A stretch of DNA of 64,000 bases. It comes from Enterobacteria phage vB_EcoM_IME341. The position numbers and the translations under genes are program-made. Positions 11,138 through 30,651 of this stretch are shown one piece after another (within the stretch, counting starts at the first letter, position 1; every line of letters begins with the position of its first letter). The stretch lies in sequence record MH051917; one strand, written 5' to 3'. The notes under the pieces were generated by a model. The model had not been told where the DNA came from. It ran no database searches and saw only the letters and a list, made by a program, of their open reading frames with translations.

Positions 11138-11425
11138 ATGTTTATGACCACTTATTTTGATACTCGTAAAAATTTCTGTGAAGTTGTTTTCTCTAAAGCA
11201 GGTAAAGATGTTCCTGCCGACAAACAACCTACTCGTGAATCTATTAAGGCTTATGCCGATGTTGTATGCCCGGTAGAATTCCGTACTGTTAATGGTCGTG
11301 ATACCCTAGCAATCACTAAGCTCAACCGTGATATCAATATCGACCCAAGTGTCGCCCGTGAAGTCAATACCTCTGACATCTATGGCGGTAATGTTAAATC
11401 GCACGGCTTTCAGATGAGGTTCTAA
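11138..11425 (+). CDS. Hypothetical protein
   Basis: Start moved to the internal ATG behind GAGGAAA; the track start at 11105 would translate a GGAGGC-TTCG-GCCTCC hairpin. Confidence 0.5.
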   Translation: MFMTTYFDTRKNFCEVVFSKAGKDVPADKQPTRESIKAYADVVCPVEFRTVNGRDTLAITKLNRDINIDPSVAREVNTSDIYGGNVKSHGFQMRF

Positions 11426-11619
11426 TGCAATTATTCTTATCACAAACTGTTCAGCTAAAAGGAGTGGGTATTCCTGGAATGATTTCTAAGGTTTTGCCTG
11501 CTTTTAAATTCGGTGGTATTGTAATTAAAGAAGCCTATATGGTCCTATGGGTCGATGGAACTGAAGACGTTCGCATGGGCGGTGAACTGTCTGTAATCAA
11601 ATGTTTAAAGCGAGGATAA
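11425..11619 (+). CDS. Hypothetical protein
   Basis: 64-aa ORF; TAATG overlap with the upstream gene. Confidence 0.45.
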   Translation: MQLFLSQTVQLKGVGIPGMISKVLPAFKFGGIVIKEAYMVLWVDGTEDVRMGGELSVIKCLKRG

Positions 11620-11620
11620 T

Positions 11621-11836
11621 ATGTTTAAGAAATTGATTCAGAAATTATTAGGTACGGAAATGGTCGAAGTGACTTATCGTGTGACTGATGTTTCTCCTCA
11701 TACGGCAGACCATTTAGAACCTTATATCACGACAATTAAAATGCCGAAATATGACGGTGGGTTATCCATTGAAGACCGTCTGCCGGGTTACGGGCACTGG
11801 GCTGATGTCGAAATTATAAGTGTCAAAGATGTCTGA
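11621..11836 (+). CDS. Hypothetical protein
   Basis: 71-aa ORF with GAGG Shine-Dalgarno. Confidence 0.5.
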   Translation: MFKKLIQKLLGTEMVEVTYRVTDVSPHTADHLEPYITTIKMPKYDGGLSIEDRLPGYGHWADVEIISVKDV

Positions 11837-12287
11837 GTTAGAAATCAGAAGTAATTTCCCGTGGCCATCATGCGCATTAAGTAACTTTGCTAAATGGCCT
11901 TTCGTTATGGATGGTATCCAATTTGGTGGACTCGAAGGATTCCTCCAAGGATGTAAGGTGAAAAATCATGAACAGCAAAAACGTATATTCAGAATGTCAG
12001 GCCTGGACGCACAAAAAGCTGGACGAACTTATGCTAGAGCTCAGGACCGTGGGACGCTGTTCTGGCTTGGAACTCCCATTTCAAGATACTCTACAGCATG
12101 GAAAGAGTTGTACGAAAATGCTTATTTTGAAGCAGCGATCCAAAACCCAGGATTTCGCGATGCGTTACAATCCACAAAAGGTAGGGTTTTAAAGCATTCG
12201 ATGGCAAGCCACCTTACAGAATGTGATACAATACTAACTGAAAAAGAGTTTATCGACATCCTAAACAAATTGAGAGATTTATTATGA
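11829..12287 (+). CDS. NADAR/YbiA-like (DUF1768) domain protein, T4 30.3-like
   Basis: About 152 aa from the first ATG (track start at 11820 is GTG); motif pattern ...SNFPWPSCALSNF..W.F...GIQFGGLEGFLQGCK... resembles NADAR-family proteins. Family call from memory only. Confidence 0.5.
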   Translation: MSELEIRSNFPWPSCALSNFAKWPFVMDGIQFGGLEGFLQGCKVKNHEQQKRIFRMSGLDAQKAGRTYARAQDRGTLFWLGTPISRYSTAWKELYENAYFEAAIQNPGFRDALQSTKGRVLKHSMASHLTECDTILTEKEFIDILNKLRDLL

Positions 12288-12922
12288 AACCAGTTATCTT
12301 AACAGATATCGATGGAGTATGTTTAAGTTGGCAGTCTGGCTTGCCTTATTTCGCACAGAAATATAATTTGCCTTTAGAACATATTTTGAATATGATTCAG
12401 GACGAACGTTTCTTATCTCCTGGTGAGCTGTTTAATTGTGATAATGAATTAGGCGCTCGTTTAATCGAGAAATATAATCAGTCGGATTTTATTCGTTATC
12501 TGTCTCCTTACATGGACGCATTAAAACATATCAACAAGCTCAAAAAAGACTTCGATTTTGTAGCCGTGACTGCGCTAGGCGACTCAATTGATGCACTGCT
12601 GAATAGACAATTCAATTTGAATGCTTTGTTCCCTGGCGCATTCAAGGAGATTCTGATGTGTGGTCATTCAGAATCAAAAGAAGACCTCTTCATAAGAGCT
12701 AAAAATACGTACGGTAAACGTATTAAGTTTTATGTTGATGATTTGGCTCACCACTGTGATGCCGCATCTAATGTTCTCATGGATATCCAAGTTTATTGGT
12801 TAGCTCGTGGTGAACGTGATTTTAAACCTAATTTAGCCGTAAAGGTTAATTCATGGGACGATATCGCAGCAATCGAATCCCTTCGTAATAATGCCGCAGT
12901 TGAATGGATTGCTCGAGGTTAA
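12284..12922 (+). CDS. HAD-superfamily hydrolase-like protein (putative nucleotidase/phosphatase)
   Basis: 212 aa; N-terminal HAD motif I (VILTDIDGV) and C-terminal Asp-rich motif (FYVDDLAHH); ATGA overlap with the upstream gene. Confidence 0.55.
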   Translation: MKPVILTDIDGVCLSWQSGLPYFAQKYNLPLEHILNMIQDERFLSPGELFNCDNELGARLIEKYNQSDFIRYLSPYMDALKHINKLKKDFDFVAVTALGDSIDALLNRQFNLNALFPGAFKEILMCGHSESKEDLFIRAKNTYGKRIKFYVDDLAHHCDAASNVLMDIQVYWLARGERDFKPNLAVKVNSWDDIAAIESLRNNAAVEWIARG

Positions 12923-12923
12923 T

Positions 12924-13202
12924 ATGTTTGTAGTTCATACAATTTCAGACTATGGTCCTACCACTACAATGGATTATGGTCATGTAAACCAGTTTATTCG
13001 TCATGTGAATCATGATTACTCATTTGATGTAAATCCGGCTAAAGACCATCCTGTTTGGCGCGAATGCGTCGAACAGGGATTCATTTATGTCCATTTTATG
13101 TCCAAGTTCAAATCTGATGGGCGAATGAGATTTGTGTTCTCTTATCATAAGCGATTAGACTTGCTTTTGGCTGATGTGGCTTATAATAGAATCCATGACT
13201 AA
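12924..13202 (+). CDS. Hypothetical protein
   Basis: Internal ATG (MFVVHTISDY...) with GAGGT Shine-Dalgarno just after the HAD gene stop; the track ORF 12891..13202 overlaps the upstream gene. Confidence 0.45.
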   Translation: MFVVHTISDYGPTTTMDYGHVNQFIRHVNHDYSFDVNPAKDHPVWRECVEQGFIYVHFMSKFKSDGRMRFVFSYHKRLDLLLADVAYNRIHD

Positions 13203-13212
13203 TGAGGTGATT

Positions 13213-14718
13213 ATGATTTTAGATATCTTAAACGAAATTGCTGCTATTGATTCTACTAAAGCTAAAGAAGCCATTATTGCTCGTGAAAAGGACAATGAGC
13301 TTCTGAAACGTGTTTATCGTATGGCTTATACCCGTCGTTTGAACTATGGTATTAAAAAGTGGCCAGAACCTGGATTTACGTCTCAATCCTTTGGTATGAT
13401 TACTCTTGAAGACCTTCTTGATTTCGCAGAGTTCACATTAGCCACTCGTAAGATTACGGGTAATGCGGCTATTGAAGAACTGGCTCAAATCATTGCTGAT
13501 GCTAAGGCCCCGGATGCCGAGGTATTACGTCGTGTAATGATGCGTGACCTTGAATGCGGTGCATCGATTTCTATTGCTAACAAGGTTTGGAAAGGTTTAA
13601 TCCCTGAACAACCTCAAATGTTAGCTAGTTCTTATGATGAAGATTTGATTAAGAAAAATATTAAATGGCCAGCATTTGCTCAATTAAAAGCTGACGGTGC
13701 TCGTTGTTTTGCCGAAGTTCGTAACGATGGTGTGACATTCCTTACTCGTGGTGGTAATGAATATCAAGGGCTTAATCTTTTGGCTGCTGAATTAATGGCC
13801 ATGACCGAAGAAGCTCGACAACGCCATCCTAATGGTGTTATGATTGACGGCGAATTAGTTTACCACACTCCTAAAGTAGAACCTAAAGCATCTAATGATT
13901 TGTTTAGTATGTTTGATGAGGAACTTCCTGAATTAAGTAAGGCTAAGGAATTCCAAACTGTCGCCGATCGTTCCACGTCAAACGGCTTGGCTAACAAGGC
14001 TCTTCAAGGGACTATTACTCCAGCCGAAGCCGATGGTATGGTATTACAGGCATGGGACTTTGTTCCACTGGATGAAGTTTATTCTGAAGGCAAAATTAAA
14101 GGCCAAAAATACGATGTTCGTTTAGCGGCATTAGTACAAATGGCTGAAGGCTTTACACGTGTCGAGCCTATCGAAACGCAATGGGTTAATAATCTTGAAG
14201 AAGCTAAAGTCGTTTATAAAAAATATGTCGACCAAGGTCTGGAAGGCATTATCCTTAAGAACATGGACTCCTACTGGGAAAACCGCCGTTCTAAGAATCT
14301 TATCAAGTTCAAAGAAGTAATCGATATCGCTTTAGAAGTGGTAGGTTATTATGAACACTCGAAGGACCCTAACAAACTAGGCGGTGTCGAGTTGGTATCA
14401 CGTTGTCGTCGAATTACAAGTGACTGTGGTTCAGGCTTTAAAGATACTACCCATAAGAAAGATAAATCAGGTAAAAAGGTATTGATTCCATTGGAAGACC
14501 GCCCTGATTTAGACCGTGAACTTCTTATGAAGCAAGCTCGTGAAGGTAAGTTGATTGGACGTATTGCTGACTGTGAATGTAATGGTTGGGTTCATTCTAA
14601 AGGACGTACAGATACTGTAGGTATTTTCCTTCCAATCATTAAAGGTTGGCGTTTCGATAAAACAGAAGCTGATACATTTGAAGATGTATTCGGTGATTGG
14701 TCTCAAACTGGACTATAA
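13213..14718 (+). CDS. 30: ATP-dependent DNA ligase (gene 30)
   Basis: Matches T4 DNA ligase from MILDILNEIAAIDSTK...; adenylation motif region AFAQLKADGARCFAEVR; C-terminal ...CECNGW...KTEADTFEDVFGDW. Start placed at the Met behind GAGGTG, not the track's upstream Met. Confidence 0.95.
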   Translation: MILDILNEIAAIDSTKAKEAIIAREKDNELLKRVYRMAYTRRLNYGIKKWPEPGFTSQSFGMITLEDLLDFAEFTLATRKITGNAAIEELAQIIADAKAPDAEVLRRVMMRDLECGASISIANKVWKGLIPEQPQMLASSYDEDLIKKNIKWPAFAQLKADGARCFAEVRNDGVTFLTRGGNEYQGLNLLAAELMAMTEEARQRHPNGVMIDGELVYHTPKVEPKASNDLFSMFDEELPELSKAKEFQTVADRSTSNGLANKALQGTITPAEADGMVLQAWDFVPLDEVYSEGKIKGQKYDVRLAALVQMAEGFTRVEPIETQWVNNLEEAKVVYKKYVDQGLEGIILKNMDSYWENRRSKNLIKFKEVIDIALEVVGYYEHSKDPNKLGGVELVSRCRRITSDCGSGFKDTTHKKDKSGKKVLIPLEDRPDLDRELLMKQAREGKLIGRIADCECNGWVHSKGRTDTVGIFLPIIKGWRFDKTEADTFEDVFGDWSQTGL

Positions 14719-28430: not shown

Positions 28431-29923
28431 AAATCCACCTGTTTCATTACGTAATTAAATTTCTCATCAGCATAACGTTGAATACGTTCTAAAGCGTGTT
28501 TGAGGGCGTAGTTCAAATGAACATATTTCTTTTTAGCCGTAGCTGATTTAGGCTTAACACCCATGTCGTCGATGATATCCCATACTTGTGCTGTTGATTT
28601 AGAAGCATGTTTACGGAGCACACGACCGATTGTCTGGAGTACAATGATTTTGGATTTTACTGGGTGAGCAAATACAACGTGGTGAAGGTTCTTAACGGAA
28701 ATACCAGTAGAGAACACACCATAACTTGCCACAACAATAATACCCTTACCATTTTCCGCCATTACTTTCAGAGCATTACGCGTTTCGGTATTAACTTCAC
28801 CTGATACGTAATAAACTTCTTTATGTTGCTCTTTAACCATTTCAAAAAGAGTTTTACCGTGTTCGATGTTTTTAAACATCAGGAATACGTTCTCTTCTTT
28901 CTTAGCGAGTTTAACAGCTAAATTAGCAACCCATTTATTACGACGAGTAGCCTTAGTAATGACTTTAATTTCTGATTGGTAATCTTTACCTTTCATCTTA
29001 ACAGTGAATTCGTCTGGGTATCGAAGGAAAATACTGTTGATTTTAAGGTCTGTAACCTGTCCTTCTTCCATTAACTGTGAGGTGGATACCGGCTTAAACA
29101 CATCACCAAACAAACCCATATATTGCATTAAATTAGCTTTACCATCTTTTAAAGAACCAGACAAACCAAATTTAAACATACAGTTGGTTAGGCCTTCGAT
29201 GATAGTAGAAATTGATTTACCTGTAGCCAAATGGCATTCATCGTTCATAAACATACCAAACTGAGCAAACCATTCTTTAGGTTGCTTGATAGCTGTTTGG
29301 TAAGTTGAAACATAAATCATTGCATCCGAATCACGGGCAGTACCTGAACGAATTCCAAGCATTGCGGCTTTAGGGAACAACCGATAATCGATGAAGTCAT
29401 TAATCATCTGGTCAACGAGTGCAGTAGTAGGAACTAAGATAAGAATTTTACCTTCATAGTTCTCAACGTAATATCGACTCAGGAGCGCCTGGATTAATGA
29501 TTTACCTGCGGATGTAGGTAAATTCAGAATTGCGCGACGTTTTGTCAGACCGTTGTATACGGCTTCATTCTGATACCAATGGGGCTCAATCTTGGTAGAC
29601 CCTGAATAAATTTCTTGAGAAGCCACCCATGAATCAAAATCTTCACGTGAAATATCTTCCTGTTCAAGAATACGTGGGTCAATCCACAGAGAGTATTCAA
29701 ATTGTTCAGCGAATTTTTTAATCTGCGGAACCAATCCATAAGGAAGTTTACGGTTATAATCCAGAAGACGAATACGACCATCCCATTGCCCATAACGAAA
29801 TTTAGGGTTGAATTTATATCCATCAGCTTCAAAGCTAAAATAGTCTCTGAGTTCGTAGAATGTGGATTCATCACACTCAATACGAACATGACTAAAATTA
29901 TCGAAATGTACTTGAATTTGCAT
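28427..29923 (-). CDS. uvsW: UvsW SF2 DNA helicase
   Basis: 498 aa; near-collinear with T4 UvsW (HFDNFSHVRIECDESTFYELRDYFSFEADGYKFNPKFRYGQWDGRIRLLDYNR; Walker A PTSAGKS; DECH box). Confidence 0.95.
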   Translation of the reverse strand: MQIQVHFDNFSHVRIECDESTFYELRDYFSFEADGYKFNPKFRYGQWDGRIRLLDYNRKLPYGLVPQIKKFAEQFEYSLWIDPRILEQEDISREDFDSWVASQEIYSGSTKIEPHWYQNEAVYNGLTKRRAILNLPTSAGKSLIQALLSRYYVENYEGKILILVPTTALVDQMINDFIDYRLFPKAAMLGIRSGTARDSDAMIYVSTYQTAIKQPKEWFAQFGMFMNDECHLATGKSISTIIEGLTNCMFKFGLSGSLKDGKANLMQYMGLFGDVFKPVSTSQLMEEGQVTDLKINSIFLRYPDEFTVKMKGKDYQSEIKVITKATRRNKWVANLAVKLAKKEENVFLMFKNIEHGKTLFEMVKEQHKEVYYVSGEVNTETRNALKVMAENGKGIIVVASYGVFSTGISVKNLHHVVFAHPVKSKIIVLQTIGRVLRKHASKSTAQVWDIIDDMGVKPKSATAKKKYVHLNYALKHALERIQRYADEKFNYVMKQVDL

Positions 29924-29937
29924 AAGTAATTCTCAGT

Positions 29938-29959
29938 TATAAATATAGTTATATTTATA
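29938..29959. promoter_or_regulatory. Divergent late promoters: TATAAATA (+) for inh/hoc and TATTTATA (= TATAAATA on the minus strand) for uvsW
   Basis: TATAAATA at 29938-29945 on the plus strand; TATTTATA at 29952-29959. Confidence 0.65.
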
Positions 29960-29973
29960 CACTAGAAAAGAGA

Positions 29974-30651
29974 ATGATTATGGACCACCAATATATTGAA
30001 GAGCTTCGTGCACTCGAAGATAAAAAAGAAGCTAAAGCTAAGTTAATCGAATACGGCGAACAGTTCGGTTTAAAACTTAAGAAAACCCGTTCGTTTGATA
30101 ATTTGATTATCGATATCACTGAAGGTCTTAAAGCCCTGGCCGACGAACCACTTCCAGAAACCGAAGGTTTGTCCATTTCTGATTTGATTGATGCTGCTGA
30201 CGAACTTACAGGTTCTAATGAATTTATTGATGGAGCCGAACCTGCTAAAGAAGAAGCAACCCTGTTGTTCGATGCCCCTGAGGCTGTAGTTGAAGTCGTT
30301 GAGGTAGTCGAACTTCCTAAGGTAGAGGTTATTGAAGAGGATGTTCCGTTTGACGAAGAGAAATTCAAAGAGGCTGTAGACAAGGTTGTTGAATTGGAAA
30401 AACCTGTATTCTCTTTACCTGAAAACTTCAGCCCTAATCTTTTGCTTATTGGTAAAAACCCTGGTTACTGTACTGTTCCTTGGTGGATTTATCAATGGAT
30501 TTCTGAGACTCCGGATTGGAAAGAACGTCCGACTGCTTTCCAACATCCTACTGCACACCAAACACTATTCAGCTTGATTTATTACATCAATCGTAATGGG
30601 TCTGTTCTAATACGAGAAACTCGTAACTCATCTTTTGTCACTTTAAAATAA
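29974..30651 (+). CDS. inh: Inh, inhibitor of the prohead protease
   Basis: 225 aa; position upstream of hoc; N-terminus MDHQYIEELRALEDKKEAKAKLIEYGEQFG consistent with T4 Inh. Confidence 0.7.
   Translation: MIMDHQYIEELRALEDKKEAKAKLIEYGEQFGLKLKKTRSFDNLIIDITEGLKALADEPLPETEGLSISDLIDAADELTGSNEFIDGAEPAKEEATLLFDAPEAVVEVVEVVELPKVEVIEEDVPFDEEKFKEAVDKVVELEKPVFSLPENFSPNLLLIGKNPGYCTVPWWIYQWISETPDWKERPTAFQHPTAHQTLFSLIYYINRNGSVLIRETRNSSFVTLK

Follow-up and report, generated by a model that had tools for sequence, protein, structure and literature searches.

In T-even phages, resistance to the bacterial toxin-antitoxin system DarTG1 was mapped to gene 30.3, since renamed adfN (Johannesman et al., Nat Commun 2025, PMC11825919), and the purified T4 protein strips ADP-ribose (ADPr) from DNA modified by the toxin DarT1. 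According to the same study, AdfN-T4 carrying either E36A or K43A gives only partial rescue, and phage RB69 is sensitive to DarTG1 because a frameshift in its allele deletes the last 15 residues and thus the terminal helix. AdfN-T4 fails to neutralise DarT1 in uninfected E. coli and fails to rescue phages T5 or Bas25, and the authors therefore suspect that an extra T-even protein is needed (PMC11825919). The phage 'gp30.3' NADARs have been defined by a last-strand histidine that replaces the Glu/Asp of other NADARs, and are active in vitro on guanine-ADPr and not on thymidine-ADPr (Ahel group, PMC11125620); T4-like NADARs are expressed early, together with ADP-ribosyltransferases (ARTs) (Iyer et al. 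2022, PMC9503650). The subject of the present analysis is the corresponding locus of Enterobacteria phage vB_EcoM_IME341 (sequence record MH051917), of which a stretch of 64,000 nucleotides, hereafter the window, was considered, and in particular gene 30.3 and the overlapping gene 30.2. Taken as a whole, it is very likely that 30.3 codes for an AdfN-type anti-DarTG1 glycohydrolase and 30.2 for an NT5C-like phosphatase of the HAD superfamily, and that the two have independent functions.

A sequence-only reading of the window had described a NADAR-like open reading frame (ORF) overlapping a HAD-hydrolase-like one, close to a ligase gene and about 2 kb upstream of two Alt ADP-ribosyltransferase genes, and had supposed that the phage NADAR counters DNA-ADP-ribosylating toxins. 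Both ORFs exist and overlap as it described, and the ligase (PF01068) and the two Alt genes (PF03496) are where it placed them, the first Alt gene starting 2,022 bp after the end of ORF 12284-12922. The anti-DarT hypothesis is correct but already published, as it was shown experimentally, against DarTG1, for the T4 AdfN to which the window protein is 84% identical (PMC11825919; in vitro, PMC11125620).

Gene 30.3 and the NADAR family

Over positions 11400-13300 the DNA shares 96% identity with Escherichia phage Bp7 and 93-95% with IME08, MX01 and related phages. The product of ORF 11829-12287 is 100% identical to that of the '30.3' gene annotated in Escherichia phage KIT01 (Tevenvirinae, genus Dhakavirus), whose annotation reads, in the orientation of the window's + strand, 31, rIII, 30.9 through 30.4, 30.3, 30.2, 30.1, 30 (DNA ligase), alt.1, alt, alt. 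Because of this identity and the classic T4 gene order, the window is T4-like Dhakavirus DNA and the ORF pair corresponds to the T4-type genes 30.3 and 30.2.

With the dedicated Pfam family Phage_30_3 (PF08010) the window gp30.3 gave a match of E 2.7e-64 (215.5 bits, cut-off 36) spanning profile positions 2-138 of 138, and it has the same length of 152 aa as its T4 counterpart. The general NADAR model PF08719 (formerly DUF1768) remained below threshold (13.5 bits, cut-off 35.1, E 0.09), as did TIGR02464 (12.6 bits, cut-off 73.7). In the profile searches that the sequence-only reading had proposed, the general DUF1768/NADAR and HAD models fell short and the dedicated family matched strongly; since the general NADAR, HAD and NT5C profiles are all sub-threshold, membership is shown here by the dedicated Pfam family together with structure models and transitive homology. 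In sequence searches of the PDB the top match of gp30.3 was E. coli YbiA, weak at E 0.3 and improving to 0.0057 over single-sequence and profile searches, while PADLOC returned no match for either gp30.3 or gp30.2.

An AlphaFold2 model of gp30.3 built from 39 sequences has a mean predicted local distance difference test score (pLDDT) of 94.3, and when it was compared by Foldseek with 350,542 PDB chains, a probability of at least 0.96 was reached only by 2b3w, 8bau and 8bat, that is, by YbiA (E 6.8e-5, template modelling (TM) score 0.69), a Phytophthora NADAR with ADP-ribose (PnNADAR) and a Geobacter lovleyi NADAR (GlNADAR), all non-NADAR matches remaining at or below 0.07. ORF 11829-12287 therefore codes for a protein that has the NADAR fold and belongs to the phage gp30.3 subfamily. 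E36, K43 (numbered as in T4) and H123 are invariant in 40 gp30.3 homologues with identities down to 34%; in the model, H123 directly follows the last strand (residues 120-122), and the C-terminal helix is intact (residues 138-151), the ORF running to residue 152 as in T4. With every feature singled out by the published work in place, sequence and model point to an intact AdfN orthologue.

Two further elements are annotated within this gene in T4. A 74-codon ORF in the +1 frame (11968-12192, + strand) is the counterpart of the T4-annotated coding sequence 30.3'. In 13 of 14 close relatives this frame runs for 76 codons without a stop, distant homologues do not maintain it, and the putative 30.3' product is identical to T4 gp30.3' at only 34 of 75 positions, as against 84% for gp30.3. 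The T4 middle promoter PM30.2 is likewise annotated inside 30.3 (X53848, 553-578) and is equivalent to 12200-12232 in the window, where its -10-like TACAAT is conserved (12227-12232), yet these bases also code for the invariant peptide DTILT. The presumed MotA box reads TGGCAA instead of the T4 TTGCTA, and the internal promoter may therefore not be conserved.

Gene 30.2, a predicted HAD phosphatase

No Pfam or NCBIfam model reached its threshold for the window gp30.2. The motif LTDIDGV, on which the HAD assignment of the sequence-only reading was based, occupies residues 6-12, and the complete set of HAD motifs, D8-x-D10-G11, T96, K132 and D152-D153, is invariant or nearly so in 40 gp30.2 homologues, D10 being strictly invariant. 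In the AlphaFold2 model (pLDDT 94.5) a helical insertion (residues 16-65) is set into a Rossmann-like core right after motif I, and Foldseek returned 169 PDB matches at E ≤0.001 (best 2.3e-8), named HAD-superfamily structures making up nearly all of the top 50. ORF 12284-12922 is thus a hydrolase of the HAD superfamily in which all four catalytic motifs are present, so that for both proteins structure prediction and catalytic residues agree with the families first suggested. In the HAD family, a second motif I aspartate and a DD motif IV mark phosphatases and phosphotransferases, not dehalogenases; as gp30.2 has both, it should be a phosphatase rather than a dehalogenase.

Within the superfamily, affinities point to the NT5C nucleotidases (PF06941). 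The window protein scores 13.4 bits with this model (gathering score 24.8), and its top PDB profile match, in an alignment that runs through motif I, is the 5'(3')-deoxyribonucleotidase of the mouse; over single-sequence and profile searches of the PDB, cdN is a weak top match at E 0.25 that improves to 0.049. The invariant W16 and the SGL of gp30.2 align opposite F and SGL in the mouse enzyme. A gp30.2 profile retrieves 1,281 cluster representatives at E ≤0.001. Of 42 remote homologues, whose set is joined to the gp30.2 set with an hhalign probability of 100%, 21 match NT5C (best 4.2e-10), compared with 11 and 10 for generic HAD models, and the divergent homologue of locus L158 (see below) matches it over its full length (E 1.3e-4, 22.3 bits). 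Taken together, these sequence affinities suggest that gp30.2 is a small-molecule phosphatase, most likely a (deoxy)nucleotidase. The literature searched held no paper that mentions gp30.2, and for phage NT5C proteins only genome-annotation papers.

The homologues differ at their C-termini, the tails being variable (total length 196-347 aa); the T4 tail corresponds to positions 1203-1466 of locus L001, and the window protein ends after a single helix (residues 191-211, positions 12857-12922). In alignment A7, which comprises remote gp30.2-like proteins of environmental T4-superfamily phages, motif IV takes the form W-[IV/L]-[E/D]-D as against V-D-D in the gp30.2 set, with Glu at the first acidic position in six of seven members and the second Asp alone invariant.

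Gene order and conservation of the pair

Neighbouring genes were counted within 4 kb on either side of the seed gene, or within 5 kb for the remote HAD loci, which were drawn with alignment A7, a tighter subset of the broad remote alignment A6; ligases in the remote loci were sought by phmmer, iterated jackhmmer having drifted onto unrelated ORFs of about 150 aa. Around the HAD gene of 78 viral loci, a DNA ligase is found in 73, usually directly downstream, and a gp30.3-type NADAR in 36 (39 when three divergent homologues of the L158 type are counted). Conversely, a HAD gene accompanies only 21 of 80 NADAR-seeded loci, and at 80 remote HAD loci there is no NADAR at all and a credible ligase in four. 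These remote loci belong to environmental T4-superfamily phages, and judged from sequence their neighbours resemble PhoH, clamp loader and RNase H.

Every sampled locus of the Tequatrovirus, Mosigvirus or Dhakavirus type retains the overlap of 30.3 and 30.2. However, in Klebsiella phage TNG87 (PV402692.1; locus L083) the NADAR gene (29856-30293) and 30.2 (134569-135183) lie about 105 kb apart, the block 30.2-30.1-ligase-alt staying together at about 135 kb and the NADAR gene being relocated to about 30 kb, as is also the case in that group of Klebsiella phages. At the level of whole genomes, 30.3 occurs in 1,509 records and 30.2 in 1,436, with matching host distributions; as both are near-universal in T4-like phages, their co-occurrence reflects only shared ancestry.

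From the neighbour counts and TNG87 it follows that the 30.3-30.2 pair is a local arrangement and not an obligate module. The notion of a conserved functional unit, implied when the two genes were first presented as a pair, is therefore rejected: in T4-like phages at large the HAD gene remains with the ligase gene, and the NADAR gene is often found elsewhere or by itself. The ligase is the most stable neighbour of the HAD gene, limited to T4-like phages of enterobacteria, Aeromonas, Acinetobacter and Vibrio; a link between the two beyond inherited gene order was mostly not upheld in the remote marine T4-like loci.

A different arrangement is seen in a divergent phage of about 167 kb (L158 37-498, 1928-3334, 3591-4004, 4001-4591; also L159 and L160), where NADAR-like, ligase and HAD genes occur within 4.6 kb in a different order. 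The NADAR-like protein matches phrog_652 (E 3.6e-41) and has Ser at the position equivalent to K43; against the gp30.3 profile hhalign gives a probability of 39%, and PHROGs and jackhmmer place it in the gp30.3 family. Overlapping the HAD gene is an ORF with a weak likeness to MazG (E 0.021), a hint of nucleotide metabolism.

Proposed function and alternative explanations

As a whole, the favoured explanation draws on several kinds of evidence: homology, fold, catalytic residues and synteny come from the present analysis, the activity and the anti-DarTG1 role from the papers on the T4 orthologue, and the substrate class of gp30.2 is what we infer from its relatives. The AdfN orthologue would be a small NADAR-fold glycohydrolase produced early in infection, which would cleave the N-glycosidic bond that joins ADP-ribose to guanine in DarT1-modified phage DNA; removal of the ADP-ribose would restore replication and defeat the DarTG1 defence. 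The gp30.2 protein would be a Mg-dependent HAD phosphatase of an NT5C-like branch with a closed helical cap, most likely removing the phosphate from a small phosphomonoester, for instance a (deoxy)nucleoside monophosphate. In Dhakavirus-type phages the two genes would be co-transcribed and translationally coupled, with probably independent functions in a shared accessory region upstream of the DNA ligase gene.

Four points weigh against this explanation. The window gp30.3 differs in 16% of its residues from AdfN-T4, the protein whose activity was measured, and AdfN-T4 itself gives uninfected E. coli and unrelated phages no protection from DarT1, so that something beyond the enzyme is needed (PMC11825919). 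As regards gp30.2, its NT5C score lies below the gathering score, and fold searches score dehalogenases, sugar phosphatases, pyrophosphatases and nucleotidases equally; the nucleotidase assignment is therefore to be read at the level of the family only.

Among the alternatives, the one that survives best, improbable as it is, assumes that gp30.2 is a DNA-end-healing 3'-phosphatase preparing nicks for the adjacent DNA ligase. However, a HAD cap after motif I closes over small substrates, and DNA and protein phosphatases are capless, whereas the gp30.2 model has a helical cap at just this place. Moreover, the sequence affinity of gp30.2 is to NT5C and not to PNKP, T4-like phages have PseT already, its gene being found in the KIT01 neighbourhood, and the scarcity of ligase genes at the remote loci suggests that the adjacency may be inherited gene order. 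Somewhat less probable still is that gp30.2 is either the T-even partner of AdfN or else a distinct enzyme of T4-like phages with a nucleotide-directed counter-defence or DNA-precursor-sanitising function.

The two alt genes 2 kb downstream might suggest that the phage NADAR mainly reverses the phage's own Alt/Mod ADP-ribosylation, or that it destroys soluble ADP-ribose-derived immune signals, rather than repairing DNA. This proximity, which had been taken as meaningful at the outset, is simply the standard T4 order alt-30-30.1-30.2-30.3, and in other T4-like phages, e.g., TNG87, the NADAR gene leaves the alt neighbourhood. Alt modifies protein arginines, in contrast to the activity of gp30.3-type NADARs on guanine in DNA. 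Because of the conserved order, the relocation elsewhere and the different targets, nothing indicates a functional link between the NADAR/HAD genes and the Alt genes. In addition, the AdfN-T4 experiments show removal of ADP-ribose from DNA and a rescue specific to DarTG1 (PMC11825919), and it is on guanine and thymine in DNA that NADARs were tested (PMC11125620); an action on signals or on Alt products as the main role is thus very unlikely.

The least likely alternative makes NADAR and HAD a two-enzyme module in which gp30.2 is the T-even-specific factor that AdfN-T4 needs, be it by processing the breakdown products of ADP-ribose or by binding, activating or targeting AdfN. In its favour are the ATGA overlap in both the window and T4, the adjacency of the genes in all sampled Tequatrovirus-, Mosigvirus- and Dhakavirus-type loci, and the finding that AdfN-T4 works in infection by RB69, which carries 30.2, and fails in uninfected cells, T5 and Bas25, an additional T-even protein having been proposed by the authors themselves (PMC11825919). 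Nevertheless, it can be dismissed with some assurance, given that the neighbour counts and the separation in TNG87 argue against gp30.2 as the missing factor, that ADP-ribose lacks a phosphomonoester on which a HAD phosphatase could act, and that about a hundred other T-even-specific proteins could fill the role.

Gene 30.3 is a counter-defence gene that lets T4-like phages replicate in bacteria with DarTG1, as established between 2023 and 2025, and the predicted intact Dhakavirus orthologue only extends its known distribution. In almost all of the roughly 1,500 T4-like records, 30.3 and 30.2 are labelled 'hypothetical protein' even though 30.3 has been published as AdfN, an annotation gap that could be closed by name. 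Gene 30.2 occurs in about 1,400 phage genomes; its product, confidently folded and predicted to be catalytically intact, belongs to a known superfamily and is itself uncharacterised.

Features of the locus

The coordinates of the two genes, their motifs and their neighbours are compiled in Table 1. The ATGA stop/start arrangement, which is typical of translational coupling, is also found in T4 record X53848. Downstream, the longest ORF of 30.1 opens at 12891, within 30.2; the KIT01 annotation and DUF3045, which matches from residue 1 with the start at 12924 and from residue 12 in the longer ORF, favour the later ATG. The 30.1 protein is about 49% identical to the KIT01 version and 100% identical to that of two other sampled phage loci (L004, L005), and this small gene therefore looks exchanged between close relatives. 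The Alt paralogues stand in tandem, 3 nt apart, the second having a weaker ART-domain match that is split into two stretches.

Table 1. Positions of genes, overlaps and catalytic codons in the window
Feature	Position	Strand	Basis
Gene 30.4	11621-11836	+	KIT01 annotation, phrog_2042
Overlap of 30.4 end and 30.3 start, 8 nt, ATGTCTGA	11829-11836	+	Read from sequence; 30.3 start is the ATG at 11829
Gene 30.3 (adfN orthologue), 152 aa, NADAR fold, predicted DNA ADP-ribosylglycohydrolase	11829-12287	+	PF08010, identity to T4 gp30.3, AlphaFold2 model, KIT01 '30.3'
Catalytic codons of 30.3: E36; K43; H123	11934-11936; 11955-11957; 12195-12197	+	
ATGA overlap of 30.3 stop codon and 30.2 start codon, 4 nt	12284-12287	+	Read from sequence
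Gene 30.2, 212 aa, predicted HAD-superfamily phosphatase, NT5C-like, C1-position helical cap after motif I	12284-12922	+	
HAD motifs of 30.2: I (D8/D10/G11); II (T96); III (K132); IV (D152-D153)	12305-12316; 12569-12571; 12677-12679; 12737-12742	+	
Gene 30.1 (DUF3045), likely start ATG at 12924, one base past the 30.2 stop	12924-13202	+	Pfam DUF3045
Gene 30, ATP-dependent DNA ligase	13174-14718	+	Pfam DNA_ligase_A_M (PF01068), E 6e-23
First Alt-type ADP-ribosyltransferase gene, 694 aa	14944-17028	+	Pfam ADPrib_exo_Tox (PF03496), E 7.4e-36; KIT01 alt
Second Alt-type ADP-ribosyltransferase gene, 707 aa	17032-19155	+	Pfam ADPrib_exo_Tox (PF03496), E 8.9e-18; KIT01 alt

Comparison with known systems

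The closest described system is T4 AdfN, with which the window gp30.3 shares 84% identity, length, E36/K43/H123, the C-terminal helix, the 4-nt overlap with 30.2 and the genomic position in the order 30.4-30.3-30.2-30.1-30-alt. It differs by 24 substitutions, activity being known from the T4 protein alone, and by the alteration of the internal promoter PM30.2 at the presumed MotA-box position. To the DarG1-type NADAR antitoxins and E. coli YbiA (PDB 8bat, 8bau, 2b3w) the likeness lies in the fold (TM 0.59-0.69) and in the ADP-ribose-contacting Glu and Lys, whereas sequence identity is only 15-18% and the last strand carries His instead of the Asp of DarT1-linked NADARs or the Glu of YbiA. Unlike the DarG1-type antitoxins, moreover, the phage NADAR gene is an orphan without a DarT partner, and its T4 orthologue is not an antitoxin in uninfected cells.

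For gp30.2, the T4 protein (278 aa) has the same position, overlaps 30.3 and is 74% identical over residues 1-191, but has a C-terminal tail of about 85 residues that the window protein lacks. With the 5'(3')-deoxyribonucleotidases of the NT5C family (cdN/mdN; PF06941; PDB 2jao, 6g2n, 3bwv), which are its best sequence-profile match and near-best fold match, gp30.2 shares the HAD core, the helical cap after motif I, a motif I of the form DxDGV with an aromatic residue at +8 and SGL after it, and the DD of motif IV.
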